Assembly (NCBI GenBank): GCA_964016885.1
Contig: OZ024743.1
Location: 112,654,001-112,718,000, forward strand
DNA from: Eledone cirrhosa
Taxonomy: Eukaryota
Length of the DNA stretch: 64,000 bases
Reading direction: 5' to 3'
Numbering within the stretch: the stretch's first letter is position 1; every line of letters starts with the position of its first letter. Below, piece after piece: positions 2,055 through 52,570 of this stretch. The position numbers and the translations under genes were made by a program. The notes under the pieces are model-generated. The model saw only the letters and a list, made by a program, of their open reading frames with translations, had not been told where the DNA came from and did not search any database.

Positions 2055-2084
2055 AATATATATATATATATATATATAAATTCG

Positions 2085-3296: not shown

Positions 3297-3341
<45 letters not shown>

Positions 3342-3503
3342 TGGTATACTTTGGGAGGGTCATGTTGCCAATAAGAAACACACGCACCAGTTGCTTTCAC
3401 TTCAATTTATTATATATTTATAAATTTATAAATTTACAAATCTACAAACTTATAAATTTCTGGTTGGTTGGTTGGTTCCACAACCAGATAGTTGTTTATA
3501 TAT

Positions 3504-3548
3504 AGTCATAGTCCTTTCGTCACACACTCTGTGACCTCTTCAGTGACT
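3504..3548 (-). ncRNA. Same hammerhead in the inverted pLTR arm
   Basis: Reverse complement reads AGTCACTGAAGAGGTCACAGAGTGTGTGACGAAAGGACTATGACT with perfect stem II GTCACA/TGTGAC. Confidence 0.75.
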
Positions 3549-4027
3549 GGGGATTCCTTTCTTTGTTTCTGTGCCTTTCCTTTCTTCTGTCCTACGCCAT
3601 TTTGTTTCTGTGTGTGTGTTGTGTGCTCAGTTTGCGCATGCGCCACATCCGGGTGTCTGTGTGTGTTTGTGTTCATTTATCTATTTGTTTATTTATTTAT
3701 TTATTTATTGTTGGTTGGTTGTTTGTTCTATGTGTGTGTGTATTTTCATTTTGTCCTTAATTGTAAGTTGTGATGTTGCTGTTCCACTCATATTTTCTAT
3801 TTAATTTTGGTTGTAATTCTTTTATGCTTACTGCCTCTGTAATTTGCCTAAACATTGCATCTTTTCTGTGTGTGGATTCTATTTTTATTTCTATGTCCTC
3901 TAATTTACCCCTGTGTTCTATCTTAGCATGTTGGTAGAGCACAGATGATTCTTTATTATCTTGAAGGTCTCGCCAGTTCGTTCCCCTATACTACGAGCTG
4001 TCTCACCTATGTACACTATATTTTTGT

Positions 4028-4960
4028 AACAACCAAAGACAAATCCTCCATTCCCATTATGCCAAACCCATGAATTCCAAACATCTGATCCACCGAAACT
4101 CGGCCATTTCGGACCATACCAAAATCAACATACTGATTACGGATTTGGTACGGGTGATGAGAAATGTGTCCCGCATGTGCAACCCCGAAGAACTAGAGAG
4201 ACACATACAACACTTCATCCACCGTATGCAATTCTCTGGCTACAATCAGAGAGATAGAATCAGAGTGTATAGAGGAGCCAGAACCAAATGGGAAAAAATG
4301 GTAAATAATGACATAAATGGGACCTGCCCCTTGTATAGGAGCAAATTTTGGAATAGAATAGAAAGAACTAGGAACAAGGCTAATAGAATAAACTCATGGT
4401 ATGATAGCAATAAATACCAGAGTGTAATGTTCATCAATACAACCCCTAGAGGCGAACTAGCCTACAAATTTAGAAGGGCCCTAAATAAACATAAACTCAA
4501 TATTAAGATAGTAGAAAGACCAGGTACCTCCGTAAAAACACTTATTAGCAAGACATACCCCTTCCAAAGACCCTCATGTATAGATAAGAAATGTATAACC
4601 TGTAAAATAAGCCCCCATATTAACTGTAAAACTAGAAATGTAGTGTATAGCATGAGATGTACTGAAGGACAATGTAGAAACAAAACTATAGTGTACATAG
4701 GTGAGACAGATCGGAGTATAGGGGAACGTATAAATGAACACTGGCGAGACCTTCAAGATAATAAAGAATCATCTGTGCTCTACCAACATGCTAAGATAGA
4801 ACACAGGGGTAAATTAGAGAACATAGAAATAAAAATAGAATCCATACACAGAAAAGATGCAATGTTTAGGCAAATTACAGAGGCAGTAAGCATAAAAGAA
4901 TTACAACCAAAATTAAATAGAAAATATGAGTGGAACAGCAACATCACAACTTACAATTAA
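4028..4960 (+). CDS. PLE polyprotein C-terminal part (RT thumb plus GIY-YIG endonuclease), 5'-truncated, uninterrupted
   Basis: HYAKPM, MFINTTPRGELA, KIVERPG, CIDKKCITC, NVVYSMRC...VYIGETDRSIGERINEH, RQITEA, LNRKYEWN. Confidence 0.92.
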   Translation, partial: NNQRQILHSHYAKPMNSKHLIHRNSAISDHTKINILITDLVRVMRNVSRMCNPEELERHIQHFIHRMQFSGYNQRDRIRVYRGARTKWEKMVNNDINGTCPLYRSKFWNRIERTRNKANRINSWYDSNKYQSVMFINTTPRGELAYKFRRALNKHKLNIKIVERPGTSVKTLISKTYPFQRPSCIDKKCITCKISPHINCKTRNVVYSMRCTEGQCRNKTIVYIGETDRSIGERINEHWRDLQDNKESSVLYQHAKIEHRGKLENIEIKIESIHRKDAMFRQITEAVSIKELQPKLNRKYEWNSNITTYN

Positions 4961-5168
4961 GGACAAACTGAAAACACACACACACATAGAACAAACAACC
5001 AACCAACAATAAATAAATAAATAAATAAACAAATAGATAAATGAACACAAACACACACAGACACCCGGATGTGGCGCATGCGCAACCTGAGCACACAACA
5101 CACACACAGAAACAAAATGGCGTAGGACAGAAGAAAGGAAAAGCACAGAAACAAAGAGAGGAATCCCC

Positions 5169-5213
5169 AGTCACTGAAGAGGTCACAGAGTGTGTGGCGA
5201 AAGGACTATGACT
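5169..5213 (+). ncRNA. Type I minimal hammerhead ribozyme in the Nematis-like pLTR
   Basis: AGTCA-CTGAAGA-G-GTCACA..TGTGGC-GAAA-GGAC-TA-TGACT: stem I AGTCA/TGACT, canonical core, very short stem III. Confidence 0.75.
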
Positions 5214-5431
5214 ATATATAAACAACTATCTGGTTGTGGAACCAACCAACCAACCAGAAATTTATAAGTTTGTAGATTTGTAAATTTATAAATTTATAAA
5301 TATATAATAAATTGAGGTGAAAGCAACTGGTGCGTGTGTTTCTTATTGGCAACATGACCCTCCCAAAGTATAACAATATCGTTTTCAACACACGATTTCA
5401 GATAAAGAATCTTGCTAAACAAATTCAGAAA

Positions 5432-5479
<48 letters not shown>

Positions 5480-5585: not shown

Positions 5586-5628
5586 AGTGTGTGTGCGTGT
5601 TATGCGCTGGCATTATTAAAGGGTCGGA

Positions 5629-5990
5629 AGCGGTGGATTGGCAGTATCGGTAGAGGGTCTGACGCCATGCTTTCCAGCATAGTTACGTCCCTTTACGATC
5701 TGAGTTCAAATCCCGCCGAGGTTGACTTTGCCTTTCATCCTTACGGGGTCGATAAAATAAAGTACCAGTAATGTACTGGGTAATTTGCTGGCCTTGTGCC
5801 TAAAGTAGAAACAATTATTAAAGGGTCGGACGCCATGCTTTGACGCATAGAGTTGCGGCCCTTGCCATTCTGAGTTCAAATCCCGCCGAGGTTAACTTTG
5901 CCTTTCATCCTTACGGGGTCGATAAAATAAAGTACCAGTAATGCACTGGTTAATTGCTGGCCTTGTGCAAAAAGTAGAAACAATTATTAT
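5629..5990 (+). mobile_element. Full SINE inserted at the head of a 5'-truncated SINE of the same family
   Basis: Same SINE motifs; TSD ATTATTAAAGGGTCGGA at 5612-5628 and 5814-5830. Confidence 0.9.
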
Positions 5991-6102
5991 ATATAGAGTT
6001 ATAACGAGCTGTATAGCTAAATGTGCATGTGGGTTTGTGTGCTAGTGTGGGAATAGGCATGCCGCTGTATATAAATATACAATGATCAGTGCATATACTT
6101 AC

Positions 6103-19432: not shown

Positions 19433-19463
<31 letters not shown>

Positions 19464-19542
19464 AAGGACGTAAAATAAGAAATTATTTTTTTAAAAAAAT
19501 TAAAAAAAAAAAAAAAAAAATTTTTTTCTTACTTAAATTTTC

Positions 19543-19624
19543 ACTCCAACTAATTAGTTTCTGCAATGGGATAAAGACAGTTACGTAATCCAACTGTTGA
19601 GAATTCATTGCGTCATCAGGAAGT
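19543..19624 (-). ncRNA. Hammerhead, inverted unit 1
   Basis: Reverse complement of 20762-20843. Confidence 0.82.
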
Positions 19625-20111
19625 CTATTCTCAGTTAAGTCTCCAGGCAATGCGCGGACACTGGCGGCTCATATAAAAATAATAATAATTCGGTAGATCG
19701 AACAGCTTGCGAGGACTGGATTCTATGTACCGAAATTCTCACTGCTTCAAGTCAAATGGCCGATTCTAAAGAATCAATCACGTGACACAGAGGCTAGTTA
19801 GAAGGAATGGGATGGTAAGATGACTGACGCCTACTAACACCCCAAAAAAAATTTTTTTTAGAAGTGGTTTTGACAAGTTTGCTCGACAAATCAGTGATTT
19901 GGAGATAAATATAGATAATTTAATATATCAACTAACATAAGCGCACAGATGCACGCCCATGCCAGCAAATACACAGGTTATGTCATAGTACCTAGGTGGT
20001 TCAATGCAGGAGAATGCAGAACAATAATATAAAGGACGTAAAATAAGAAAATATTTTTTTAAAAAAATTAAAAAAAAAAAAAAAAAAAATTTTTTTCTTA
20101 CTTAAATTTTC

Positions 20112-20193
20112 ACTCCAACTAATTAGTTTCTGCAATGGGATAAAGACAGTTACGTAATCCAACTGTTGAGAATTCATTGCGTCATCAGGAAGT
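20112..20193 (-). ncRNA. Hammerhead, inverted unit 2
   Basis: Reverse complement of 20762-20843. Confidence 0.82.
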
Positions 20194-20761
20194 CTATTCT
20201 CAGTTAAGTCTCCAGGCAATGCGCGGACACTGGCGGCTCATATAAAAATAATAATAATTCGGTAGATCGAACAGCTTGCGATAAGTAAGAAAAAAATTTT
20301 TTTTTTTTTTTTTTTTAATTTTTTTAAAAAAATATTTTCTTATTTTACGTCCTTTATATTATTGTTCTGCATTCTCCTGCATTGAACCACCTAGGTACTA
20401 TGACATAACCTGTGTATTTGCTGGCATGGGCGTGCATCTGTGCGCTTATGTTAGTTGATATATTAAATTATCTATATTTATCTCCAAATCACTGATTTGT
20501 CGAGCAAACTTGTCAAAACCACTTCTAAAAAAAATTTTTTTTGGGGTGTTAGTAGGCGTCAGTCATCTTACCATCCCATTCCTTCTAACTAGCCTCTGTG
20601 TCACGTGATTGATTCTTTAGAATCGGCCATTTGACTTGAAGCAGTGAGAATTTCGGTACATAGAATCCAGTCCTCGCAAGCTGTTCGATCTACCGAATTA
20701 TTATTATTTTTATATGAGCCGCCAGTGTCCGCGCATTGCCTGGAGACTTAACTGAGAATAG

Positions 20762-20843
20762 ACTTCCTGATGACGCAATGAATTCTCAACAGTTGGATTA
20801 CGTAACTGTCTTTATCCCATTGCAGAAACTAATTAGTTGGAGT
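20762..20843 (+). ncRNA. Type I hammerhead ribozyme with extended stem II
   Basis: Stem I ACTTC/GGAGT; CTGATGA; stem II GCAATG/CATTGC with distal ACAGTT/AACTGT hairpin; GAAA; palindromic CTAATTAG in stem III; GUU triplet at 20836-20838. Confidence 0.82.
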
Positions 20844-21329
20844 GAAAATTTAAGTAAGAAAAAAATTTTTTTTTTTTTTTTTTTAATTTTTTTAAAAAAA
20901 TATTTTCTTATTTTACGTCCTTTATATTATTGTTCTGCATTCTCCTGCATTGAACCACCTAGGTACTATGACATAACCTGTGTATTTGCTGGCATGGGCG
21001 TGCATCTGTGCGCTTATGTTAGTTGATATATTAAATTATCTATATTTATCTCCAAATCACTGATTTGTCGAGCAAACTTGTCAAAACCACTTCTAAAAAA
21101 AATTTTTTTTGGGGTGTTAGTAGGCGTCAGTCATCTTACCATCCCATTCCTTCTAACTAGCCTCTGTGTCACGTGATTGATTCTTTAGAATCGGCCATTT
21201 GACTTGAAGCAGTGAGAATTTCGGTACATAGAATCCAGTCCTCGCAAGCTGTTCGATCTACCGAATTATTATTATTTTTATATGAGCCGCCAGTGTCCGC
21301 GCATTGCCTGGAGACTTAACTGAGAATAG

Positions 21330-21411
21330 ACTTCCTGATGACGCAATGAATTCTCAACAGTTGGATTACGTAACTGTCTTTATCCCATTGCAGAAACTAA
21401 TTAGTTGGAGT
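21330..21411 (+). ncRNA. Hammerhead, next tandem unit
   Basis: Identical to 20762-20843. Confidence 0.82.
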
Positions 21412-21611
21412 GAAAATTTAAGTAAGAAAAAAATTTTTTTTTTTTTTTTAATTTTTTTAAAAAAATATTTTCTTATTTTACGTCCTTTATATTATTGTTC
21501 TGCATTCTCCTGCATTGAACCACCTAGGTACTATGACATAACCTGTGTATTTGCTGGCATGGGCGTGCATCTGTGCGCTTATGTTAGTTGATATATTAAA
21601 TTATCTCTATA

Positions 21612-21665: not shown

Positions 21666-21943
21666 CATATATATACATATATATACAGTTGAGCAGTTGA
21701 AGTATAAGGACGTGTTTTTACTTCTCTCCCCGAGTAAGCAGCAAGTCACACAGCCACAAAACAAAACCACAAAACAAAACCAAACAAACAAAAATTGACC
21801 GGTTAATACATTTACATACATCTATATTATTATATATTTGAAACCACGTGTTTTCCAACTTGTGAGTACATTTTCCTTTAACTACAAATTATTATTATAT
21901 ACTTTCGTCTTTTCATTAATTTAATTAATTTCAAATAACCAGA

Positions 21944-21976
<33 letters not shown>

Positions 21977-22095
21977 CTCATATTTATATATATACTCTTC
22001 TCACTCACACACAAGAAAAACAAAAAACAAAAATAAATAAAAAAAATATATATATATTGAAATACTTAACTAAAATACACACACTCAAAACTAGA

Positions 22096-23250
22096 ATGGC
22101 TAACCAGCAAAAATCCAAACAGAACTGGTCTGATAATGAAATCGACATTCTAATAAACACATGGCATTGCCTTACCCAAACAGAAGACATAGATGCTTCA
22201 TCTCTGAACGACATTGCTAAACGTACAGTTCAATTTTTGAAAACTCGATCTGAACAACAGATTCAAGATGAATTAAAGCAAATCGAAATTGCTTTTAAAT
22301 TAATCAATAAACATTTGGATAAACTACGGTGTGTTTTTTCTTCGAATGCTGTCCAGCAGCAGCAACAACAACAACAGCAGCTACAACGGCAACAACAACA
22401 ACAGCTACAACAACAACATCAACAACAGCAACAACAACAACAACGACAACAACAGTGTGAACCACTCCTTGATTCATCAACAATGGCCGATCTACTAAAT
22501 GAAACTATTGACCTCCCAGTAGCCTCTGTCTCACAGCATGAAACGCCACATCCTTTCTCTGGCCCAGCAGTCCAATCATCACCACTGCCAACATCTTCTC
22601 TGCCTACTACTACTACTACTACTACAACATTTTTGTCTACTGCTATGTCAAGGAATTTACCTTCTAATACCAGAACAAGAACTCTCCCTCCCACAGTCCA
22701 CAAAGGTCGTCAAATCCTACTCAAACCATCATCTACACCTCTCACAACACACACACCCACATACCCACCCACTCGAAACCCCATCATTTGCCGCTACTCT
22801 CTACGCTATAGAATATGTACGGATAGTGGCTGCAAATTCACCCATTTACCTAGGACAAAACGATCTATCCCCACAAACAGCCACCACCATAATACATACT
22901 CTAATTTAACACCAACACAACTACCAATAACTCAAACAAGGAATCCACAAATCTGCCGCTTTTCCCTGCGAGACAGATTGTGTTTAGACCGGGATTGTCC
23001 CTTTACCCATCTCCCGGGGAACCGTCGGACAAATGAAAATAAAATTAAAAATAAAAGCAAAAACAAAAACCATAACCTACATAAAAATAACCACTACCAC
23101 AGTCACCAACAGTCTTCTAAACAGGAAACTTCTTCCTCTTTTTTAGCCATAATGAATCTGGCAAAAGAACTGGAAAAAAACATTCGAGCTATCACCCAGC
23201 ACCACCCTCCACTATCACCCCACTGCACAAACTCCCATTGCTGCCATTAA
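22096..23250 (+). CDS. LINE ORF1: SANT/Myb-like N-terminus, polyQ, two C-x8-C-x4-C-x3-H zinc fingers
   Basis: ATG at 22096; WSDNEIDILINTW...RSEQQIQDELK; CRYSLRYRICTDSGCKFTH (22789-22845) and CRFSLRDRLCLDRDCPFTH (22954-23010). Confidence 0.8.
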   Translation: MANQQKSKQNWSDNEIDILINTWHCLTQTEDIDASSLNDIAKRTVQFLKTRSEQQIQDELKQIEIAFKLINKHLDKLRCVFSSNAVQQQQQQQQQLQRQQQQQLQQQHQQQQQQQQRQQQCEPLLDSSTMADLLNETIDLPVASVSQHETPHPFSGPAVQSSPLPTSSLPTTTTTTTTFLSTAMSRNLPSNTRTRTLPPTVHKGRQILLKPSSTPLTTHTPTYPPTRNPIICRYSLRYRICTDSGCKFTHLPRTKRSIPTNSHHHNTYSNLTPTQLPITQTRNPQICRFSLRDRLCLDRDCPFTHLPGNRRTNENKIKNKSKNKNHNLHKNNHYHSHQQSSKQETSSSFLAIMNLAKELEKNIRAITQHHPPLSPHCTNSHCCH

Positions 23251-24480
23251 CAAACAAACAAATTAACAACACACCAAAACAATTAAAACCATCCACTCTC
23301 GCCTCTACATTTTTGCTTAACGCCCAAGGCATCAGCCCTTCCACCAATACTCAAAAATGGAAGATCAAATTCCTGGAGGACTGGATTGATGTCCATCCAA
23401 ACCACATCCCCTTCTTCGTCCTCACTGAAACCCATCTCAGTAACCTCCACTTGGAAGCCGAGGTGAAAGTGAAAAATTTCAAAGCCATCCGTGCTGATCG
23501 CGCTGGCAGAAGAAAGGGCGGAACTGCCATTTATGTCCATAATTCTTTCTCAACAGAGGCTATGAACATATTCACTAATGGATACTGTGAAGCAGTCACT
23601 CTATTCAGTCAAACCAACAACCTATTAGTAGTTGGGCTCTATAGGCCACCCCAAACGCCTGTACCATGCTTCAAGGAATGCCTCAACAGCATAAAGTGTT
23701 TCATCCAAGAGTGTCACCCTGACAACATCTTAATGATGGGGGACTTCAACCTCCCCGGAGTTGACTGGTCCACAAACAGCCTGCCACCAGGTTCTTCTGC
23801 CTCAACCTCTGACAGGGAAGCAGTGGAATCGTTTCTTGACTTCATGGATGATTTTTTCCTATCCCAACTGGTGCTCGAACCAACGAGGTGCCACAAAAAC
23901 GTCCTAGACTTAATTTTCAGCAATCACACTGACAATATCCACAATATTGCAGTGAAGAAAACTCTACTCTCTGATCATGACATGGTTCTCTGTGATCTGA
24001 GATTCCGTCCAATATACAAACCCAATGTCATCTCTCCTGTCCATCCGTTTGACGCTATGGATTTCCACAATGCAAACTGGGAAGCGATCAGTCATGATCT
24101 TGCACATGTCGACTGGTCCTTCACGCACACTCATACACCCACTAACATCAAAAAGTACTGGCAGACATTTGTGGACACTGTTACAAACATATGTGCTAAA
24201 CACACCCCATTAAGAACTATAAACAAATCTAAGAGCAGAATCCCTAGAAATAGAAAAACGCTCATCAGAAAAATTAAGAGAACGAACAAAAAAATCAACA
24301 AGCTGAAATACTGTCAGCAGCAACACATCAACTTGACTGCCATTTCATCACTAGAGATTAAAAAACATAACCTCCAAAACAACATAATGTCCCTCATCAA
24401 CAATCAGAGAAGAGCTGAAGAGGCCTGGGCCATTGAGAAGATCAAACTCAATCCCAAAGTGTTCTTTTCATTTGCAAAAA
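23121..24480 (+). CDS. LINE ORF2 N-terminal part: APE endonuclease (frame open from 23121)
   Basis: LLNAQG, LTETHL, DR...KGG, LYRPP, MGDFNLP, PTR..NVLDLIF, SDHDMV. Confidence 0.92.
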
Positions 24481-26256
24481 AAACACAAAATCACTGGCTC
24501 TACTGTTGGCCCTCTAATTGATGAAAATGGCACTCTTCAAGACAATGCTAAAACCATGGGTGAGATACTGCAGAAACAATACTGCTCTGTTTTCAGCAAT
24601 CCTGATATGGCCGATCTGGGCTGTATCGGCGATGTTACTCCCCATTACACCTTATCGGACATAACGTTTGGCGCCCCTGATGTCTTAGCGGCAATAAAGG
24701 AAATCAAGCATAATTCAGCAGTAGGTCCCGATAGGTTCCCTGCTTGTGTCTTGAAGGCGTCTCAACACCAACTTGCATCTCCTCTTGCCAATCTGTGGCG
24801 GAACTCACTGGATGCTGGATATGTGCCAGAAAACCTTCTATCCCAGTCTGTTGTCCCAGTTTTCAAAAAGGGAAACAAATCCCTTGCCGTGAATTACCGT
24901 CCAATCTCACTCACCTCTCATATCATTAAGGTATTTGAGAGAGTGGTGAGATCGCGAATGACCCACTTCCTTGAGAGTAACAATATGCTGAACTCCAACC
25001 AGCATGGATTCCGTAATGGAAGGGATTGCCTGACGCAGCTACTGCATCACTTTGATGACATTTTGAGAGCCTTGGGAGAGGGTTCCAACACTGATGTTAT
25101 CTACCTTGATTTCAGCAAGGCCTTTGACAGGGTTGATCATAACATTCTAGTGAGAAAGCTGTCCAATATTGGTGTCACTGGAAAGCTGCTGCAGTGGATC
25201 AAGAGCTTCCTGTCAAACAGAACCCAACATGTTGTAGTTGAAGGAGTCAAATCCAGCCCAGCCAAAGTCAGTAGTGGGGTCCCACAAGGCACTGTGTTGG
25301 GCCCACTTCTCTTCATCATCTATATTAATGACATCACTGACATCATCAAACACAGCAACATTAAAATTTTCGCTGATGATTCCAAGCTCCAAAAGGTCAT
25401 CAATGGCGTGGATGACCGGATAAGCCTTCAGTCAGACCTACTGGCTGTTACCCAATGGGCGGAAAAGAACAACATGTTACTGAACGAAGACAAATTCGAA
25501 CTGATCCACTTTGGAAAAGAGGATGCTCTGAAACTCCCGTACTCCCTTCCCTCCGGGGAAACTCTCGTGGCATCTAACAACATCAGAGACTTGGGAGTAA
25601 CCGTGGACAGCAACATAAGCTGGACCACGCATATAAGCAGCAAAGTTGACATGGCCCGCAGAATGTGTTCCTGGATCCTCAGAACCTTCCAGTCGAGAGA
25701 TTCCCACACCATTATCCTTCTCTTCTCTACTTTTGCCCGACCACACCTTGAATACTGTTGTCCACTGTGGTCTCCCCACACGAAACAAAGTATCATGAAA
25801 CTTGAAGCTCCTCAAAGGGCAATCACGAAAAAGATAGATGGCATGTCAGACCTTGACTACTGGGGTCGATTAGAAAAGCTGAAACTTTACTCACTCCAAC
25901 GTCGCCGTGAGCGTTATATTATCTGCATGATGTGGAAAATGTTCCATCATCACTGCCCAAATGATGTTGGCATCGCCTTCAAGATACACCCAAGGCTTGG
26001 GCCCCGTGCTATCCGTCCCATTCAAAAATCTAAATCGCAACACATAATAACAATACGGCACAATTATTTCACCTCAATCGGCCCTGCTCTCTTCAACATC
26101 ACACCAGGACACGTCAAAACAGAAACTGACCACACAAAATTCAAGAAGTCTTTGGACAAATTCCTCCAAGTAATCCCGGACAAACCACCCACACCCGGAT
26201 ATGTCTCCGCAAACAGTAATTCTCTTCTCGAATGGGCCATGGTGCCCAAATCCTGA
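24481..26256 (+). CDS. LINE ORF2 C-terminal part: reverse transcriptase; joined to the APE part if one A is removed from the A8 run at 24476-24483
   Basis: NYRPISLTS, QHGFR, YLDFSKAFD, GVPQGTVLGPLLFIIYIND, FADDSKL, RDLGV, LEYCCPLWSP, LYSLQRRRERY. Confidence 0.95.
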   Translation, partial: KHKITGSTVGPLIDENGTLQDNAKTMGEILQKQYCSVFSNPDMADLGCIGDVTPHYTLSDITFGAPDVLAAIKEIKHNSAVGPDRFPACVLKASQHQLASPLANLWRNSLDAGYVPENLLSQSVVPVFKKGNKSLAVNYRPISLTSHIIKVFERVVRSRMTHFLESNNMLNSNQHGFRNGRDCLTQLLHHFDDILRALGEGSNTDVIYLDFSKAFDRVDHNILVRKLSNIGVTGKLLQWIKSFLSNRTQHVVVEGVKSSPAKVSSGVPQGTVLGPLLFIIYINDITDIIKHSNIKIFADDSKLQKVINGVDDRISLQSDLLAVTQWAEKNNMLLNEDKFELIHFGKEDALKLPYSLPSGETLVASNNIRDLGVTVDSNISWTTHISSKVDMARRMCSWILRTFQSRDSHTIILLFSTFARPHLEYCCPLWSPHTKQSIMKLEAPQRAITKKIDGMSDLDYWGRLEKLKLYSLQRRRERYIICMMWKMFHHHCPNDVGIAFKIHPRLGPRAIRPIQKSKSQHIITIRHNYFTSIGPALFNITPGHVKTETDHTKFKKSLDKFLQVIPDKPPTPGYVSANSNSLLEWAMVPKS

Positions 26257-26331
26257 ATTGAAAGACTTCGCCAGGTGGTGCTATTAAGTTAGACATGGCC
26301 TGGGCCAATACTGGCCAAAACATTTCAAAGT

Positions 26332-26412
<81 letters not shown>

Positions 26413-26934
26413 GGAACCAGTAAGACCCCGACAGCTGAGCTCAAGCCGTTTCGACGGCTAATTCTGGACTAAATGAAAATTTATCCTGGTATTTAAATAG
26501 CCGATCTTCTCAAGGGGTAATTCCATATATGGTCAAAGTGATTGTCAAAAATCAGTAGTAATTCTGTGGTTGCAAATTAGTAGGGGAGATGGTGGCTAAA
26601 CCAGCCAGTAGGAGAAAGAGGGGAGGGGGTGGAGTAGCCCCAATCAAGCGTTTGTAGTGCCAGCTACAGCTGGGCATGAGGTCAAAGAAGATACAAGGGA
26701 GGGGGAGGGGGAGGAAGTCGGAACGGTAGGTGGAACAATGGGGGTAGAAATATATAGGAAAGAGAGTGAAGAAAAGCAAATAAGTGTAAAGAAAAACAAA
26801 TGAGTGTAAAGAAAAAAGTAAAGTAAATTAAATTCTACGACCTAGGTCTCTAGCTATTGTTAGTCTGGAATAAATAAATAAATAAAGAAAGAAAGAAGTA
26901 AAGAAAGAAATAAAGAAATAACGAAATAAGTAAT

Positions 26935-28701
26935 ATTATTAGCAGCCTAAACTCCACCTATAAAAAGGCCAACCACTCTTGCATCGAGGACATAAATCGA
27001 GATGGACAACAAATCACCTCCAGCCTCGGGGTCGCCGACCGCACGGAACCTCTAGACCCACGGACACCATACTTCACACTGAAGGACCATAAATCCGATT
27101 TTGACCGTAAACCCTCTATCAGGCTTATTAACCCAACGAAGTCCGACATAGGGAGAATCAGCAAAAAAATCCTAGACCGCGTGATACCAAAAGTCAAGCA
27201 ACACACCCGACTTAGCCTATGGATCAACACCCAGGAAGTAATCTCCTGGTTCAGCAATATGGAGGATAAACGAGAAACTAAATTCATACAGTTCGACATA
27301 GAGAGCTACTATGCTTCAATCACCTTACCGCTACTTACTGCCGCCTTGGACTTCGCCAAAACACTTGTGCCCATCACCGACCAGGAAAGAAAAATCATCC
27401 TCCACGCCAGGAAGACAGTCTTACTCTTTGACGACTCTAAATGGATAAAAAGAGCTCCCGACTCACCCTTCGACGTCAGCATGGGCGCCACGGATTCGGC
27501 GGAGGTCACAGATCTTATAGGATTATTCCTAATAGCCAAACTCACTGATATGTTTCCTGCATTCGGTGGTGGATTGTACCGTGATGATGGGCTCCTTACC
27601 CTTAAAGGGTACAACCCCAGTAGTACAGATCGGGACCGGAAACAATTAACCAGATTCTTCCGCGACTGGGGATTTAAAATAACCATACAAACGTCCCTGA
27701 CCAGAGTAAACTTCCTGGACGTGACCCTCGACCTCGAAAACGACCTGTACTACCCATACAGGAAACCTAATGACAATCTGCACTACATCCACCGCCGATC
27801 AAACCATCCTAGGAACATCACAAACAACCTGGTCAAAAACATCTCCCTCCGCATATCCCGTTTGTCAGCTAATGAGCGGATATTCGATGAACATGCGCCT
27901 TATTACAACCAGGCCCTCAAGCGGAGTGGTTTCCGGGAGGAAATATCCTACTGTCCAGCTCCCATTAGCGGAACCAGCAGGAGACACCGCCGCTCACGCA
28001 ATGTAACATGGTTCAATCCTCCCCACAACGCAGAGGTGACAACTCCCATCGGGAAACTATTCTTTAGGCTCATTGAAAAACACTTCCCATTACAACACCG
28101 CTACCACAACATAATTAACAAAAATACCATCAAACTCTCTTACAGCACTACACCAAACTTCGCACAAAACATCGTCTCCTCTAACAACAAAAAACTCAAC
28201 CCCGATGGCAGAAATAACCTAAATAGCAGTGGAGAACCGACCAGGAGGTGTAACTGCCCGGATAGATCTATCTGCCCACTCGACAATAGATGCAGAGACC
28301 GTAATGTGATCTACCAGTGCAACGTGAGGACGGATACCTCCAACAAAGCCTATATAGGACTTACCGCATGTGACTTCAAGACCCGGCTATACCAACATAG
28401 ACATACCTTCCGAAACCCGGCCCGGCGTCACGCTACTACACTCTCGGGCCACATATGGGACCTCAAGGACAACAACATCACCTATGATCTCACTTGGAGA
28501 TTACTGTCCAGAGCCAATTCTTACACGGGAGGACGCCGTCCGTGCAATTTATGCTCGGAGGAAACTTTACAAATGCTGTTTTCGACGGACCAACACCTAA
28601 ACAAGAAAGATGAACTGGTTACTACATGTAAACATAGATTGCGTAGGACTTACCTCGCCCTCAAACCCCATAATGACCCGGGGGGTAGACTAGGGCTATA
28701 A
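26935..28701 (+). CDS. PLE RT plus C-terminal GIY-YIG endonuclease, uninterrupted, 5'-truncated
   Basis: FTLKDHK..RLINPTKS, QFDIESYY, DVSMGATD, GLYRDDGL, VNFLDV, WFNPP, CNC..CPL..C, VIYQC...AYIGLT, CNLCSEE, LNKKDELVTTCKH. Clade assignment is from remembered motifs and is less certain than the PLE call. Confidence 0.93.
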   Translation: MISSLNSTYKKANHSCIEDINRDGQQITSSLGVADRTEPLDPRTPYFTLKDHKSDFDRKPSIRLINPTKSDIGRISKKILDRVIPKVKQHTRLSLWINTQEVISWFSNMEDKRETKFIQFDIESYYASITLPLLTAALDFAKTLVPITDQERKIILHARKTVLLFDDSKWIKRAPDSPFDVSMGATDSAEVTDLIGLFLIAKLTDMFPAFGGGLYRDDGLLTLKGYNPSSTDRDRKQLTRFFRDWGFKITIQTSLTRVNFLDVTLDLENDLYYPYRKPNDNLHYIHRRSNHPRNITNNLVKNISLRISRLSANERIFDEHAPYYNQALKRSGFREEISYCPAPISGTSRRHRRSRNVTWFNPPHNAEVTTPIGKLFFRLIEKHFPLQHRYHNIINKNTIKLSYSTTPNFAQNIVSSNNKKLNPDGRNNLNSSGEPTRRCNCPDRSICPLDNRCRDRNVIYQCNVRTDTSNKAYIGLTACDFKTRLYQHRHTFRNPARRHATTLSGHIWDLKDNNITYDLTWRLLSRANSYTGGRRPCNLCSEETLQMLFSTDQHLNKKDELVTTCKHRLRRTYLALKPHNDPGGRLGL

Positions 28702-29816
28702 CACCCCACTTGCTGACTTTGCAATGGGTACCCCCTGCTTGCCAAGGGAGACGTAAGATCTTCTTTGTATTCTTTTATCGCTTCCTTTATTTCCTTCCTT
28801 CCCCCCTCTCTCCTTAGTCCTTCTACCCCAGCTCTTCTCCTTTGTCGACGTCTTTTCTCGCCCACCCGAGGCTGCCCTTTGGCCCCTTGTAGCCTTAGTA
28901 CCCCTACCCCCTCCCCTAGTCTAGGATAGATTTGGCGGACTCCGCCCTTTATAGCAGTTGGTTTAGACCCCGGATACTTGTCCCCTTTTTCCGACCGCTC
29001 CCACTATTCTCTGTGCCCTCTATATTTCTTAGTGGCACTTATGCCTTATTTTTTCGTTTCAGTATTTCTTTCTTCGCTTTTCTTTTGGGCGGGCTGGATT
29101 CTGAATTTATTCTTCCGTATTCTACCTTTACTTCGTACGAACTTTCATGTAGCTTGTTTTAGATCTTTTAGAGTTAGCATTAGTATATATTTTTCTCGGG
29201 ACTCAGAATTATTATCTCGTATTAGTTCACTTTGCTGCACTGGGTGGTGGCTGGAATTGTACCCGGGATGGAAACCTTTATTGTCTATTTCGTGGTAGTC
29301 TCTTTAGTATTTTGGCCCCTTTTGTTGACCCGTCACCGTATCATTTACGTACTTATACCTCTTAAAAGGGTCCTCGCCTAATCCGTCCCACCTAGTTCTT
29401 TTACTTATTTCGTTATTTCTTTATTTCTTTCTTTACTTCTTTCTTTCTTTATTTATTTATTTATTCCAGACTAACAATAGCTAGAGACCTAGGTCGTAGA
29501 ATTTAATTTACTTTACTTTTTTCTTTACACTCATTTGTTTTTCTTTACACTTATTTGCTTTTCTTCACTCTCTTTCCTATATATTTCTACCCCCCATTGT
29601 TCTACCTACCGTTCCGACTTCCTCCCCCTCCCCCTCCCTTGTATCTTCTTTGACCTCATGCCCAGCTGTAGCTGGCACTACAAACGCTTGATTGGGGCTA
29701 CTCCACCCCCTCCCCTCTTTCTCCTACTGGCTGGTTTAGCCACCATCTCCCCTACTAATTTGCAACCACAGAATTACTACTGATTTTTGACAATCACTTT
29801 GACCATATATGGAATT

Positions 29817-29910
29817 ACCCCTTGAGAAGATCGGCTATTTAAATACCAGGATAAATTTTCATTTAGTCCAGAATTAGCCGTCGAAACGGCTTGAGCTCAG
29901 CTGTCGGGGT
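29817..29910 (+). ncRNA. Type I hammerhead with variant U3-A8 core
   Basis: Stem I ACCCC/GGGGT; core TTGAGAA; stem II GA(T)CGGCTA/TAGCCGTC with inner GGATAAAT/ATTTAGTCC hairpin; GAAA; stem III ACGGC/GCTGT around palindromic TGAGCTCA; GUC at 29903-29905. A mirror copy lies in the inverted arm. Confidence 0.8.
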
Positions 29911-30001
29911 CTTACTGGTTCCTATTATCCACTCTACTACCTCAAGTATTGAGTACTTTGGTGCGTTATGGTCCACCTGGTTCCTTACCACATTTCCTTC
30001 G

Positions 30002-30080
<79 letters not shown>

Positions 30081-31670: not shown

Positions 31671-32155
31671 TTATTATACTTGGGGAGGGTCATATTGTTG
31701 TAATAATATTAGCAGAAATATTAACAGAATCACACTCAGTTAGGTTGGTTTTCGAACAGCATCTTTTATATCTCAAAGTTAATTCATTTGGCCATCAATG
31801 TTTATTATTGACTGACCAACGGTCAAAAATACAGATATAAATATAAATGGCGTAAACACAACACAATAGGAGGAAATATGATAATAGTACCACTGATGAT
31901 GTTACCGATATGCGACGAGAGAACTTTGTTAGACTATATATAAAAAATTTTTATCTGTATTTTTGACCGTTGGGCAGTCATTGATAAACACAAAAGAAAG
32001 AATGAAGAGTTCCTTCTACTGACATGGCTATAAAAATGAGGCTTATTTGCATAATTTCAAATGAATCGAATGTTATTATTAATATTCGAAAAACTCAGAT
32101 TACATTTATATATATAAATATGTATATGAATATATATATATATATATGTATATAT

Positions 32156-32241: not shown

Positions 32242-32652
32242 CGGCGATGAATAAGTTTTGCGGACACATATCACGAACACACGTCAAACAAAACACTATA
32301 CACACACGCAAACGAATGCGCAAAGAAGACAAAATAAATAAACAAATGAATAAATATATAAACAGACTAAATAAAGATGGCGTAAAAAATACAATGCAAC
32401 GGGAGGAAACAATAGCACCACTGACGATGTTGCAGATGTGCAACGAAAGAACTTTGATAAACGATATATATGTGTTTGTGTCTATATTGTATCTGTATTA
32501 TTTTTGACTGTTGGTCAGTCAATGGCAACATTGAGGACCGAATAAATTAGATTACAGATATAAAAGACACAGAAGCGAAAACCAATCAAACAGTGAGTGT
32601 GTTCTGTTATTAATTCTGGCAATATTACACAAATATGACCCTCCCCAAGTAT

Positions 32653-32658
<6 letters not shown>
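31671..32658 (+). mobile_element. Older Nematis-related pLTR cluster: inverted arm plus two direct pLTR pieces
   Basis: Ends ATGACCCTCCCCAAGTATAACAAT as at 5354-5377; hammerhead remnants near 31890-31930 and at 32418-32457 (CTGACGA-T-GTTGCA/TGCAAC-GAAA). Confidence 0.75.
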
Positions 32659-32952: not shown

Positions 32953-34362
32953 ACCAGATAGAAAAATGCGTACAGCAAAAAAAAGTAATATTGTTGGAAT
33001 ATAAACCTTTAAAAATACAGGACAAGAAACTAAAATAAAACTTTAAAAGAATAGGACAAGAAACTAAGATAAAACTTTAAAGAATTGGACAAGAAATAAA
33101 AAAATTTACAATAATATTAGTGGCAAAATTTTTATTGGTAAAAAATCGAGTTCCACATTCATAGGCTCTGGGTCCCACATTCAGAGGTCGTCGTCAGACG
33201 TGGAGGATGATTTGATCCTGGTTTGAACACCAATTGGGCCATAACCATACCCTTATTTCATCATTCGGCGACACGCCTCATGTGTCATGCATAATGTGAA
33301 TGGACCCATGGGCCCATGAGCACAGATCTTGAGCAGCAGCGGACGGTCTTGTCGTCCCGCTCATCCTTGATCTTGACCAACCCGTCCATCTTCTCCTTGC
33401 ATCTTGTCCTTGATTTCAAGTCCGGCAGTCCAGATGAATGCGTGCCACAGCTTTCTGGTACAGGAAGGGGGAGCAGGAGGACTGGAGGGATGACGGGATA
33501 GAGGGAGGGGGGACCGGTGGTTGAGGGAGGAGCCGTAGTCGGTGGTCAGAGTCGACATCTTGTCCCGGTCGTCTTCTCCATCTTCGTCTGGTGCTGCGGG
33601 ACCAGAAGTGCATTCTTGGAGGAGACCTGCAGCTGCATCGGCCAATTCTTCTTGCAATGGTCATTCTGACGGAGCAGAACTGCTCAGCCAACCAACACCA
33701 ACCAGAACCAACCGCTCAGGGGCAACGCACAATGAGAGCGTGGCAATTATTATGCACTAATCAAGAAGATACTGGGGCATAGCACAGGAAACGAATAAAA
33801 ACATTTTGCCACTAATATTATTGTAAACTTTTTTATTTCTTGTCCAATTCTTTAAAGTTTTATCTTAGTTTCTTGTCCTGTATTTTTAAAGGTTTATATT
33901 CCAACAATATTACTGTTTTTTGCTGTACGCATTTTTCTATCTGGTCTACTACTTTTTAAGGCAATGCAAGCAACAACTATCTAATAATTAAATGATCATA
34001 GTGAATTACTGACAAGTGATTGACATTTTAAAGTTCTTTTGAGTATAATTGCAATCTAGTTGAGGCAACTGGCTTAATGACAAAGCTACGTCATTTCTGG
34101 ATTACCTCCCCTAGCGTCACGCTTACTACTCACTCACTTGAACACAAGATTTATCAGCAAACTTTGATTATAAACTTTTTCCCGCTGAACCAAATTTCTA
34201 GATTTTTAAGCCAAAAGATGCGTAATGATCTACTGTTCATGCTCATATAAGTTTTATCTCAGTTAAATAAAGTAGAGCCGCGCTGTACTGTCGTAAACAG
34301 ACGATTGCCAACGAAAACAGGACCACAACAATATTACTAAACGGACTACCGTCCGTTTAGGA
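32953..34362 (+). mobile_element. Unclassified element: ~150-180-bp inverted arms around a GC-rich core, then a ~415-nt tail ending in a hairpin
   Basis: Arms 32953-33136 and 33794-33945; hairpin CTAAACGGAC-TACC-GTCCGTTTAG at 34337-34360; (TA)n flanks. Confidence 0.6.
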
Positions 34363-34423: not shown

Positions 34424-34488
<65 letters not shown>

Positions 34489-34489
<1 letters not shown>

Positions 34490-34683
34490 GAAAAATTATG
34501 ACCCCGACGGCAGAGCTCAATCCGTTTCGACGGCTATTTCTAGACGTCCAGAAATAGCCGTCGAAACGGCTTGAGCTCTGCCGTCGGGGGTCATACTTTT
34601 TCCTATTTCCCACTCTACTACCCTTAGTATTGAGTACTCTGGTGCGTTATGATCCATCTGGTTCCTTACCACAATTCCTTTGT

Positions 34684-34710: not shown

Positions 34711-34715
<5 letters not shown>

Positions 34716-35232
34716 AAAATAACAGGAAGGTGGACTGGTGTAAATCCTTGAAAGGTTTATTATACTATGATCATTTCAATGACCGGGTTAAGTATGAATC
34801 CGGTGACATTATCAGGTAACAAAATATAACAAAGGAATATAATAGATAAAATCCATGGGGCTAAAATTCAGAGACAAGAGGCCGACCGACTATTTAGCAG
34901 CTTCTACCTCACTCGGTCTCTGATTTTCAGCCCCATGGATTTTATCTGTTATATTCCTTTGTTATATTTTTTTTTACTTGATAATGTCACCGGATTTTAA
35001 TTAATCAGGTCATTGAAATGATCATAGTATAATAAACCTTTAAAGGATTTACACCAGTCCAGCCTCCTGTTATTTTATAATAATTAACTCTGTACTCGCA
35101 CCACCAACTACACAAACGAAGAGCGGTGAGTTGCATTACGTTGGGTGCTCTCCATAATATTACATCCAGGCTGACCATACGGAAGAGCCAGTTCTATCTA
35201 TCCAGTGGTGAACCAACAAACCTAAATAAATG
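34711..35232 (+). mobile_element. Inverted-arm-plus-tail PLE end (family D) with hammerhead remnant at 34975-35029
   Basis: Arms 34711-34875 and 34916-35081; TAC-TTGATAA-stem II-GAAA-TGATCA-TA-GTA. Confidence 0.72.
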
Positions 35233-35247: not shown

Positions 35248-35431
35248 GTCAGGACCCCGACAGCAGAGCTCAAGCCGTTTCGACGGCTATTTCTGGACGA
35301 ACTAGCCGACGAAAAGGCTTGAGCTCTGCCGTCGGGGTCCTGACTTTTTTCCTATTACCCACTCTACTACCCAAAGTATCGAGTACTCTGGTGCGTTATG
35401 GTCCACCTGGTTCCTTACCACACTTCCTTCG
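35248..35431 (+). mobile_element. Family A mini-PLE insertion
   Basis: Same arms and tail as the other copies. Confidence 0.88.
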
Positions 35432-35453: not shown

Positions 35454-35643
35454 ATTTAATAAAGAATTGGCTTCTACAGGACTAGAACTGTTTCATTCGA
35501 AGGAAATCATCAGCAAAGCCATGATGATGTCCTTCGAATGGAACAGTTCTCGTCCTGTAGAAGCCATTTCTATATTAAATATTTATACTCTGTTATGTAT
35601 TGAGTACATTACTTACTGTGGTTTCCCCCCAATTGAATCCGGG
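35454..35643 (+). mobile_element. Family B mini-PLE insertion (hammerhead-containing hairpin plus tail)
   Basis: Arms give the consensus GGCTTTC-CTGATGA-TTTCCTTCGAAT-GAAACAG-TTCTAGTC-CTGTA-GAAGCC; tail ends GAATCCGGG. Confidence 0.82.
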
Positions 35644-36672: not shown

Positions 36673-36731
36673 ACGAAGGAAATGTGGTAAGGAACCAGGT
36701 GGACCATAACGCACCAAAGTACTCAATACTT
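36672..36731 (-). mobile_element. Family A tail-only insertion
   Basis: Reverse complement of ~29944-30002 within (TA)n. Confidence 0.85.
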
Positions 36732-38348: not shown

Positions 38349-39029
38349 CCCAAACATACGCACATAGACACAAACACACAAGCACACACACACATATACA
38401 CACACAAGCCCAATACACACACTTAACCATACACACACCCTCACACAAGCACGACAAACGACACGAAATATTGCGCACATATGCATACGCATGTACACAT
38501 ATATACACATACACACATACAGGAACATACACGTACACACAATCATACGCACACACACACACACACACACACATACATACATACATACATACATACATAC
38601 ATACATACATACATACATACATACATACATACATACATACATACATACATACATACACAATTATATGCACATACACACACAGTCTTATCTCTATTCTCTG
38701 AGACACTATTTCTTCCCTTCATCCTCTCCACCTCATCACTACTCGACACTCGTGATAGAAGAAAAAAACTTGGAACTATGGCTTCTTCTGTTAGTCTTGT
38801 AGAAGCACTAGAACTGACGACATAATTTCTAAAACGACACCACCGATGCCTTCATCTAAACCACCACCAGCAGCACCACCATCGTCTGTGTATGTATGTA
38901 TCATGAGTGTCGTATTCTGAGGAAGCTGAGATGGTAAATATTACTCCAACCAACATTTTATCCACAACAAACAATTGACATCATTCTTATATCACGACAA
39001 ACACCCATCATTATTACACCTACCCAATT

Positions 39030-39248
39030 GGCGGTGAATTGGCAGTATCGGTAGAGGGTTGGACGCCATTCTTTCTAGCATAGTTACGTCCCTTTACAGT
39101 CTGAGTTCAAAACCCGTCGAGATCAACTTTGCCTTTCATCCTTACGGGGTCGATAAAATAAAGCACCAGTAACGTACTGGGGTCGATTTAATCGATATTC
39201 CCCTCCCCCAAAATTGCTGGCCTTGTGCCTATATAAGAAACCATTATT
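39030..39248 (+). mobile_element. tRNA-derived SINE
   Basis: Family motifs; TSD CATTATTACACCTACCCAATT at 39009-39029 and 39242-39262. Confidence 0.9.
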
Positions 39249-39379
39249 ACACCTACCCAATTATAGCATTATCATTAACATCATCCTCATCATCATCATC
39301 ATCATCTTCAACAACATCATCCTCATCATCAACATCATCATCATCAACGTCATCATCAATATCATCATCACCATCAATT

Positions 39380-39571
39380 GGCGGTGAATTGGCAGTATCA
39401 GTAGAAGGTCGGACGCCATTCTTTCTAGCATAGTTACGTCCCTTTACAGTCTGAGTTCCAATCCCGTCGATGTTAACTTTGCCCTTCATCCTTTACGGGG
39501 TCGATAAAATAAAGTACCAGTAATGTACTGTGTCATTGCTGGCCTTGTGCCTAAAGTAGAAACAATTATTA
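39380..39571 (+). mobile_element. tRNA-derived SINE
   Basis: Family motifs. Confidence 0.88.
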
Positions 39572-39589
39572 TACCTACCCTTAAATGTG

Positions 39590-43641: not shown

Positions 43642-44112
43642 GTGGATTTGCAGTATCGGTAGATCGCCAGACACCCTGACTTGCAGCATAGCGTTTTGGC
43701 ACTTTGCGTTCTGAGTTCAAATCCCGCCGAGGTCAACTTTGCCTTTCATCCTACGGGGTCAATAAAATAAAGTACCAGTAATGCGCTGAGGTCGATTTAA
43801 TCGACTTTCCCCTCCCCCAAAATTGCTGGCCTTGTGCTTAAAATAGAAACAATTATTAAGTCTATTTCAAGGGCGGCGGATTGGCAGTATCGGTAGAGCG
43901 TCGAACACCCTACTTCGCGACAGTGAGCTACGTCCCTTTACGTTCTGCTACGTCCCTTTACGTTCTGAGTTCAAATTCCGCCGAGGTTAATTTTGCCTTT
44001 CATCCTTACGAGGTCAATAAAATAAAGTACCAGTCACCCACTTGTGTCGATTTAATCGACTTTCCCCTCCCCCAAAATTGATGGCCTTGTACCTAAATTA
44101 GAAACTATTATT
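43642..44112 (+). mobile_element. Two tandem SINEs, the second inserted at the tail of the first
   Basis: TSD ATTATTAAGTCTATTTCAA at 43852-43870 and 44107-44125. Confidence 0.88.
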
Positions 44113-44631
44113 AAGTCTATTTCAATGTAAAGAGACGGTATAATTACTGCTACTGTAAATAAAGTTTCATTCACTTTGCCCCGATGGTCGTATTGTCGAA
44201 ACATTTGGCAATCGAGGTTATTTTCTTATTTCTACGAGAAGACTACTATAACTCTTTAGACGGCAAAACTATAAGTCAGTTTTCTTGTTGGAGATATTGA
44301 TTGATCTGTCTCTTACACACCCACACACACTCTCCCTCTTTCTCCCTCTCTCTCTCTCCCTCTCCCTCTTTGGTATTAATCTTTCTACAAAATCAGCCAA
44401 GAGCCAATACCGACTTTTACAATGTATTCTCTAGTCACAGTGCTAGTGACAAGATAATAAATTAGGACTTTCCGTTTAGTGTACCGTCTCGAATATGTTC
44501 TATTTGCTGCAAGCAATAGAATAACTACCAGACTTAAAAGAAATAACTATTGGGGTACATATCACTTCATGACGGTGTCCCATTATTGCTACAGTCTAAT
44601 GAGTGAAACCAGTATAGAAAAGTATACGTGT

Positions 44632-45194: not shown

Positions 45195-45281
45195 AAAGAA
45201 TGAGAAATAAGAATGTTTGAAGGGACGGGTGGGTTGGAATTGGAAAAAATGTTTTAGATAAAAATAACAGGTCCATTCATA

Positions 45282-45459
45282 GAGAAATCATCAGGTAGCC
45301 CTGATGATTTCTCCAGATTGAAACAGTTCTAGTCCTGTAGAAGCCATTTCTATATTAAATATTTATACTCTGCTATGTATTGAGTACCTTGCTTACTGTG
45401 GTTACCCCCGATTAAACCTGGGAGCTTGCTTGCTGTGGTTACCCCCGATTAAACCCGGG
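45282..45459 (+). mobile_element. Family B mini-PLE insertion with duplicated 3' end
   Basis: CTGATGA...GAAACAGTTCTAGTCCTGTAGAAGCC at 45301-45345; last ~37 nt tandemly repeated. Confidence 0.8.
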
Positions 45460-45489
45460 ATAAACATGTGTGTGTGTGTGTGCGTGTGT

Positions 45490-46203: not shown

Positions 46204-46295
46204 TTCACTCTCTCTCTCTCTATCTATCTATCTCTCTCTCTCTATCTCTATCTATATATCTCTCTCTCTCTCTCCCTATATACATATATGTATAC

Positions 46296-46488
46296 ATATT
46301 TAATATAGAAATGTCTTGTACAGGACTAGAACTGCTTCATTCAAAGTAAATTATCAGGAAAGCTTTCCTGGTGATTTCTTTCGAATGAAACAGTTCTAGT
46401 CCTGTAGATGACATTTCTATATTAAATATTTATACCCTGCTATGGATTGAGTACCTTACTTACTGTAGTTACCCCCGATTGAACCCGG
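46296..46488 (+). mobile_element. Family B mini-PLE insertion
   Basis: Palindrome centred on AAGCTT, plus tail ending GAACCCGG before (TA)n. Confidence 0.82.
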
Positions 46489-46932
46489 TATATATATATA
46501 TATATATATATATATACCGGGCGAAGTGTTATGTCCTTGAGCAAGACATTTTATTCTACGTTGTTCCTTCTACCTGGAGTTGCGACCGATAGATAGTATT
46601 AGCAATTAGAAAGACCAATGGAAACATTGTTTCCTCGATCCGATTTGACGAAAGTCGATCGACTGTCGATATATATATATATATAAATATACAAATATAC
46701 ATTTAGCGAGAATCGCATTTCGGCGAGTAGAAATTAGCGAAACGCAACTTCCGAATTGTGTTGGCGAGCGCTCAATGGATATGAATATACCAGAGCTATA
46801 AACATAAGTTTAAAAGGCCATACAAAACTGAGACGATGGTTAAGAAGCCATTAACCACCTAAGCCAAAGAAGCGAGCAAGCTAAGCGGGTGAAACAAAAA
46901 TAAGAATAAGATATGATTGAAATATATATATA

Positions 46933-47300: not shown

Positions 47301-47523
47301 TTGTTATACTTTGGGAGGGTCATGTTGCCAATAAGAAACACATGCACCAGTTGCTTTCACTTCAATTTATTATAATAAATATATAAATTTATATATTTCT
47401 GGTTGGTTGGTTGGTTCCACAACCAGATAGTTGTTTTAGTTCTTTCGTCACACACTCTGTGACCTCTTCAGTGACTGGGGATTCTTTTCTTTGTTTTTGT
47501 GCCTCTCCTTTGTTCTGTCCTAC
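47301..47523 (-). mobile_element. Solo Nematis-like pLTR
   Basis: Matches ~3341-3597. Confidence 0.9.
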
Positions 47524-52128: not shown

Positions 52129-52570
52129 TTGTGGCAGTACCGGTGGAGCATCGGACAACATGCTTTATGGCACAGAGTTACGGCCCTTTACGATCTAAGT
52201 TAAAATCCTGCCGGAGTTAGCTTTGCCTTTCATCCTTACGAGGTCGATAAAATAAAGTACCGGTAATGCACTGAGGTTGTTTAATCGACTTCCTCTCCCC
52301 CAAAAATTGTTGGTCTTGTGCTTAAATCAGAAACCATTATTCACAATAGCAGTATGGTGGTCGTTAGACAGAATCGGTAGAGCGTCGAACGAAATGTTAT
52401 TGCTGTACTTGTTCTGGTTCTTTACATTCAGAATTCAAATCCCGTCAAATTCAACTTCACCTTTCATCCTCCCGACGTTGACAATATAAAATACCAGTTA
52501 TATACGTGGGCTGATATAATCAACTTTACATTTCCGCCAAATTTTCTGTCCTAGTGCCTCAAGTAGATAT
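52129..52570 (+). mobile_element. Two tandem SINEs, the second degenerate
   Basis: Family motifs. Confidence 0.8.

Follow-up and report, generated by a model that had tools for sequence, protein, structure and literature searches.

Nine insertions of a Hydra-clade Penelope-like element family in Eledone cirrhosa have clustered end points beside a conserved bulged RNA hairpin

We analyzed a 64-kb stretch of DNA from Eledone cirrhosa (contig OZ024743.1, positions 112,654,001 to 112,718,000 of the forward strand; hereafter the window, in whose coordinates positions are given) that carries a truncated 3.6-kb Penelope-like element (PLE) and eight short insertions, the minis, that share its 3' end. 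A BLAST search of the window with the long copy returned exactly these nine insertions, here called family A, and none further. TA repeats flank all nine copies, and tracts of at least five TA units make up 5.4% of the window. The long copy contains the following features:

26407-26933, minus strand: inverted arm, a copy of 29401-29928 with the ribozyme and without the tail (99.6% identity over 528 columns, one indel and one substitution)
26935-28701, plus strand: 5'-truncated Hydra-type open reading frame (ORF) of 588 amino acids, reverse transcriptase (RT) plus C-terminal GIY-YIG endonuclease; about 132 N-terminal residues missing; 913 homologs, the best at 39-57% identity
29815-29910, plus strand: type I hammerhead ribozyme-like fold with a variant U3-A8 core and a 37-nt loop II; predicted cut after 29905
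29836-29868, plus strand: candidate core promoter in loop II, with a TATA-like motif at 29836-29843 and an initiator (Inr)-like +1 at 29861 or 29865; coincides with the join of the minis
29922-29927, plus strand: upstream fixed end (arm end), a UA-rich patch 3-8 nt before hairpin 1
29931-29956, plus strand: bulged hairpin 1 (RCTC-stem-loop-stem-UN-GAGYRC), conserved across Hydra-type PLEs and located between the two fixed ends
29994-30002, plus strand: downstream fixed end (tail end), 72 nt after the start of hairpin 1; hairpin 2 is predicted just beyond

Judged by its motifs, the long copy is a 5'-truncated member of the Hydra clade of PLEs; its likeness to named Hydra elements was assessed by eye only. 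The single 588-residue frame contains the YRDD motif of the RT, a CxCX5C linker at residue 439 (present in 114 of the 120 homologs listed) and YIG at residue 473. A CxxC motif (CNLC, residue 537) and a CxH motif (CKH, residue 565) lie near the end of the endonuclease. The CCHH motif is absent, with a single Cys between VIY and YIG. These are the marks of the Hydra clade given in PMC8557442, which also describes a (TA)n target, an octopus member, and one consensus with an inverted 5'-truncated copy. The region that would hold the RWK and DKT motifs has been truncated away; among the 120 homologs listed, RW[KR] occurs in 78, DK[TS] in 101, and DKG in 6. The ORF matched no Pfam family, and a profile search of the PDB gave no match. 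A Naiad/Chlamys PLE was ruled out, as the endonuclease is C-terminal and not N-terminal. The 3' region spans 1.3 kb, and thus the whole element would exceed 3 kb.

The 3' region contains a hammerhead-like fold. A hammerhead descriptor matched 29815-29910 and gave no strict matches in 20 Markov controls. The three-way junction appears in the minimum-free-energy (MFE) fold of this interval, at an energy no better than that of shuffled sequences (z-score 0.05). Fourteen loci (L001-L014) from a scan of bacterial genome assemblies served as external relatives; they are contigs with animal-type PLEs, apparently of Hydra type, and likely represent host contamination. Rfam returned nothing relevant in the window, in the 3' region, or in six of these 14 loci. 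The U3-A8 variant of the core is also found in Schistosoma PLEs (PMC4209133), and the family A ribozyme had no match among the ribozymes in the available portions of PMC8557442. The minis contain only the 3' half of the ribozyme and give no descriptor match. Their assignment as non-LTR (long terminal repeat) retrozymes was therefore rejected, as these need tandem units with a complete type I hammerhead.

The eight minis are:

1057-1245, plus strand: two-armed mini 1057, of an older sub-family
1663-1833, plus strand: mini 1663, with a 26-nt arm; the two-armed mini nearest to the long copy (91%)
1854-2055, minus strand: two-armed mini 1853, its join with a 7-nt loop
32739-32933, plus strand: two-armed mini 32740, a loop-less perfect palindrome
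34488-34683, plus strand: two-armed mini 34489, with the join and arm-end base of 32740; sense part 97.7% identical
35248-35431, plus strand: two-armed mini 35248, its outer arm end about 10-12 nt short
36673-36730, minus strand: tail-only copy 36672, 58 nt, 100% identical to the long copy
62545-62722, minus strand: two-armed mini 62544, the most diverged

The first-pass annotation of this DNA had described the nine insertions as a series with two fixed ends and a variable join. Our comparison of end points, which covers the few copies in the window, bears out the shared tail end: all nine terminate at reference position 30001-30002, with an exact TTCCTTNG(T) in eight and one base off in 62544. 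The arm ends agree less strictly. Six of the eight two-armed copies, the long copy included, end within 29922-29927, 75-80 nt upstream of the tail end, and the arms of 62544 and 35248 are about 3-4 nt and 10-12 nt shorter, respectively. As had also been reported, the left arm of the long copy reproduces 29401-29928 (two differences, the last 75 nt absent) and not the adjacent ORF, a tail-only family A copy exists at 36673-36730, and a neighboring PLE family, labeled Nematis-like in that annotation, has tail-less single copies at 47302-47523 and 60395-60589. The statement that only the internal join varies is misleading, as the sense part begins at 29862-29871 in all seven two-armed minis.

The two-armed minis are 171-202 nt long, and each has a 75-90-nt tail beyond the repeat at one end only (7/7). 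Family D, a second family of palindromic minis in the window (35456-35643, 46290-46488, and 45266-45462, the last with a duplicated tail end), has a Hydra-like hammerhead and the same tail hairpin. Exactly one tail is present in all eight two-armed family A copies, an outcome with a probability of 0.004 at best if the two sides were independent and of 0.03 when five lineages are counted. The same is true of both intact family D minis and of three of the four two-armed external insertions with both ends visible. Their length of about 190 bp, palindromic structure, and TA sites might suggest that the minis are ordinary DNA-transposon miniature inverted-repeat transposable elements (MITEs) that resemble a PLE end by chance. 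We consider this highly improbable, given their 77-91% identity to the PLE 3' end, the existence of the tail-only copy, and the 75-90-nt tail, whose one-sidedness means that the inverted repeats are not terminal. Membership among MITEs is refuted by the PLE homology and the asymmetry of the ends; the ends of the minis are PLE ends, and any target-site duplication would be hidden within the flanking (TA)n.

The bulged hairpin at 29931-29956 is also present in family D, and its pattern gave no matches in 30 controls. We chose 15 distinct instances solely by their anchors, taking one from each window family and every distinct instance from the loci. Of the 45 inner cells, 42 are paired using many pair types; shuffled alignments averaged 26.2 with a maximum of 39, and none of 20,000 reached the observed value. 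A third window sequence with the same hairpin lies at 46650-46830 on the minus strand, 111 nt from a TA tract. Two tandem hairpins precede the ATG in all four external loci with an intact 5' untranslated region (UTR), at spacings of 62, 63, 65, and 68 nt (L008, L004, L003, and L010); in L003 both are variants, one of them identified by eye. L005 lacks the bulged hairpin. In four families, tail-less ends fall short of hairpin 1 by about 3-8 nt. Measured from the start of hairpin 1, tail ends fall 54-63 nt downstream in six other families and 71-72 nt downstream in family A. As judged by eye, the published Hydra-1_Crog consensus has its end after hairpin 1 and its beginning 6 nt upstream of a second hairpin, and the ends of the Hydra-1_Ajap consensus also fit the hairpin pattern. 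In 24 published Hydra consensuses, the distance from the ribozyme to the 3' end is 26-43 nt in 10, 81-149 nt in 11, and outside these ranges in three. The match between hairpin spacing and tail length suggests that each end likely marks priming beside one hairpin. The tail contains an ATG at 29968, whose use as an ORF start is unsupported: 186 of 1444 control peptides score as high, and the ATG of the relatives follows hairpin 2.

The start of the sense part defines a third near-fixed point, confined to about 10 nt inside loop II of the ribozyme in 7/7 two-armed minis. If truncation were uniform over 140 nt, the chance of a spread no wider than 9 nt would be ~1e-6 for seven copies and ~1e-3 for four lineages. 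Wide variation of the join is limited to long copies, with arms of 527 nt in family A, 26 nt in L013, and 274 nt in L006. The minis had been interpreted as abortive PLE insertions. They are indeed PLE-derived and not DNA-transposon MITEs, but the third near-fixed point makes them stereotyped products, not random abortive truncations.

This point coincides with the candidate core promoter. The interval 29836-29868 holds the sole TATA and Inr composite in the 3069-nt sense body, with none in antisense (chance 0.2-0.7%), a figure to be read with the caution that the motifs were applied post hoc, after the sequence had been seen. In eight of 15 related families, some of the 15 possibly outside the Hydra clade, a TATA-like motif is found 33-46 nt upstream of the ribozyme core; 3.2 were expected (p = 0.004, for one of five windows tried). 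Family A has no such motif at -40 and has one inside loop II. The distance from the join down to the core is 1-6 nt in family D (3/3 minis) and 9-14 nt in an L006 mini. PLE transcripts start in the pseudo-LTR (pLTR; PMC2377424), and the fixed join likely represents run-off at the 5' end of the RNA. Within the same two-primer scheme, RT could instead stall or dissociate at a point set by the ribozyme fold or a bound protein, a reading that the joins of family A, family D, and the L006 mini, all within the ribozyme or next to it, would allow. However, the landmark varies (loop II in family A, stem I or upstream in others) and follows the promoter-like motifs, and long copies read through the ribozyme, leaving a stall rather improbable.

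Fold-back of a single cDNA offers another origin for the arm, in line with the self-priming proposed in PMC3846280: the cDNA would prime itself at the extended stem II, and the arm would be copied from the cDNA. Close to the join, stem II forms a natural inverted repeat, and the two arms carry the same sub-family variants. Yet in the long copy the 527-nt arm does not adjoin the truncation point, 32740 and 34489 are loop-less, 1663 lacks the 5' half of its parent's loop II, and the fixed outer arm end beside hairpin 1 is left without a reason. We regard this explanation as quite improbable.

A constant join could also be inherited if the minis were a self-propagating non-autonomous family with one or a few founders, the arm being regenerated or homogenized in each round, or if DNA-level conversion occurred between (TA)n tracts. 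Minis 32740 and 34489, with 97.7% identity, have an identical loop-less join and a common arm-end base that is missing from their sense copy; 1853 also differs at this base, as expected from CpG decay. The first-pass annotation had linked one identical join, together with a clade of their own, to independent amplification of the minis, and such a join was found in this one sub-group only. Minis 1057 and 62544 share a sense-only change at 29908, and the joins of family D are clustered too. Differences between arm and sense parts are shared within sub-families more often than by chance (6 versus 1.2, p = 0.0004; 3 versus 0.8, p = 0.03, without the arm-end column), an excess that favors unit copying and counts against independent birth of every mini.

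The distribution of variants argues for repeated birth. Non-consensus bases present on both arms number 26 in the eight two-armed copies, 16 of them distinct. Only 2/16 of these both-arm variants fall in ribozyme-constrained columns and none is disruptive, compared with 10/20 one-arm changes in such columns, six of them disruptive (Fisher p = 0.03 and 0.02). The sub-family variants thus keep the ribozyme intact even though the minis lack its 5' half, and the divergence of the sub-families likely arose in ribozyme-bearing parents. Furthermore, the tail-only copy is identical to the long copy, and 1663 groups with the long copy (support 84/82) in a tree that is unrooted, has no strongly supported branch, includes one long copy, and leaves out 36672 as too short. 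From these sequence comparisons we conclude that the minis likely arose repeatedly from ribozyme-bearing parents, and that self-propagation as their general origin is unlikely. In some cases, RT or DNA conversion from one TA tract to another probably copied a mini as a unit, and the trio 32740, 34489, and 1853 looks to be such a case.

On balance we favor a model in which the nine insertions comprise one 5'-truncated Hydra-clade PLE and its short products, with ends set by two hairpins and by run-off at the transcription start. RT would bind two tandem RNA hairpins and prime one cDNA just 5' of each, at the UA-rich patch, using nicks on opposite strands of a (TA)n target; head-to-head joining of the two cDNAs would follow. 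The tail-bearing cDNA would come from priming ahead of hairpin 2 and the tail-less arm from priming ahead of hairpin 1, so that the length of the tail would equal the hairpin spacing. An RT dimer on a single RNA would leave one tail per insertion, and the presence of one tail in nearly all two-armed insertions suggests such coupled use. Where RT uses the hairpin pair near the 5' end of the RNA, synthesis of both cDNAs would end by run-off at the transcription start, predicted near 29865, generating near-perfect palindromic minis; where the 3' hairpin copy is used, variable stops would generate the long copy. At least one mini was likely copied further as a unit. The proposal that two priming sites are used on opposite strands had been made in the first-pass annotation. 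It fits the anatomy (one tail in 8/8) and in vitro work on an anole PLE (PMC11167929). As two start sites and nicking and extension of both strands are published for that element, the earlier scheme is largely in print except for the joining of the cDNAs, which we infer.

Several observations weigh against this model. Hairpin 2 is absent from all family A copies, and no external locus combines an intact 5' UTR with a tail-bearing end of one family. The 72-nt distance in family A exceeds that of every relative, the third window hairpin (46796) is 111 nt from its TA tract, and the MFE of the whole tail is no better than that of shuffled sequences, with no signal in 9/9 copies. The L006 long copy is tail-less at both ends, the Penelope-13_HM consensus is symmetric, and start-site use by the anole PLE is alike on both strands (PMC11167929). 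With regard to run-off, one of two external minis (L006 5580-5993) joins at least 50 nt upstream of the core, and the promoter of Drosophila virilis Penelope is TATA-less (PMC2377424).

Additional elements occupy the window. A retrozyme-like element at 19460-21606 is built of 568-bp tandem units that do not code for protein, each contain a canonical-core hammerhead with a long loop II, and are placed head to head in (TA)n; its right end extends 115 nt beyond the end point of the left arm, and the join lacks microhomology. This PLE insertion anatomy fits the proposed mobilization of retrozymes by PLEs. Short units that bear a hammerhead and lie between TA tracts also occur at L009 1933-2154 and L013 2772, and L009 2061 begins 17 nt upstream of the core. 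Another truncated PLE, the one labeled Nematis-like, lies at 3338-5433 with a 640-nt tail-less arm and a 54-nt tail. A frame that begins at an ATG near 5355 runs through this tail, and related pieces are at 31674-31845, 32483-32657, 47302-47523, 57649-57738, and 60395-60589. A LINE (long interspersed nuclear element)-like element with ORF1, apurinic/apyrimidinic endonuclease, and RT frames (21925-26334) ends at the TA tract of the long copy. Inverted-repeat insertions of other families are found at 34715-35220, 32954-33950, 2085-2378, and 58710-58880, several of them adjoining family A copies across a TA tract. Masked self-BLAST, which was used to find dispersed repeats, also detected a SINE (short interspersed nuclear element)-like repeat of 140-190 nt in many copies, some tandem (2531-2925, 5624-5991, 39027-39580, 43642-44125, 52132-52567, and 58401-58931).

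A broader generalization is possible, although we hold it with distinctly less conviction than the model for the window. A clade-wide hairpin pair may act as a ruler for an RT dimer, with one subunit per hairpin and opposite strand, which would account in a single step for the tail and the inverted pLTR of PLEs; minis from 5'-end priming would mark the transcription start, here in loop II, and some would become retro-elements that mimic MITEs. If a covarying element with a spacing equal to the tail length does set the ends, start sites should follow moved hairpins. In TA-rich genomes, annotation could mistake such minis for MITEs or SINEs, and the joins of minis may map PLE transcription starts. 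The RTs of PLEs form the sister group of telomerase RTs. Given this kinship, a template start defined by structure bears on how such enzymes choose their templates.

In L1 twin priming, the second target strand primes a second cDNA, yielding an inversion whose inverted part lies upstream, does not overlap, and has variable ends. In family A, by comparison, a single stretch of RNA would be copied twice, starting at a fixed site. PLEs as a rule have inverted pLTRs and, optionally, a 30-40-nt tail; the origin of the inverted pLTRs and the one-sided tail is posed as an open question in PMC8557442 and partly answered in PMC11167929. The latter describes Poseidon PAc of Anolis carolinensis, which resembles family A in its two internal RT start sites bounding the tail, the cutting and extension of both strands, the AT-rich target, and the predicted dimer. 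However, its tail, of the 30-40-nt type, lies in one AC-rich stem-loop within the ORF with no difference between strands, whereas the family A tail is 75-80 nt, is apparently 5' UTR, occurs once per insertion, and involves two hairpins. Penelope elements of Adineta vaga (PMC3846280) share inverted pLTRs, an optional tail at one end, palindromes at the inverted junction, and TATA- and Inr-like pLTR motifs; self-priming was proposed there, while the family A evidence favors two primers with run-off at a fixed point. Metazoan non-LTR retrozymes (PMC7229834) are likewise short, non-coding, tied to type I hammerheads, and thought to be mobilized by PLEs, but they consist of tandem units with the whole ribozyme, whereas the family A minis are palindromes with its 3' half only.

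The closest likeness is to the Hydra clade (PMC8557442), with its CxCX5C, CxxC, and CxH motifs, absence of CCHH, 3' hammerhead, and (TA)n target, and with an inverted 5'-truncated copy as in Penelope-13_HM. The Hydra ribozymes described there have a C3-G8 core and short loops, unlike the U3-A8 core and 37-nt loop II of family A, and the available portions do not mention a hairpin pair or minis for the clade. Our literature search, in which most subscription journals and Repbase/Dfam entries were uncovered and PMC8557442 and PMC13282606, on octopus repeats, were available in part, found no account of the hairpin pair, such minis, the third fixed point, or a promoter within the ribozyme; the supplementary figures of PMC11167929, outside its scope, may show a structure related to the hairpin pair. 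What has been published for PLEs includes the two start sites, the nicking of both strands, the inverted copies, and the one-sided tail; to these, family A and its relatives add the pair of hairpins, a third fixed point, and a candidate promoter located in the ribozyme.

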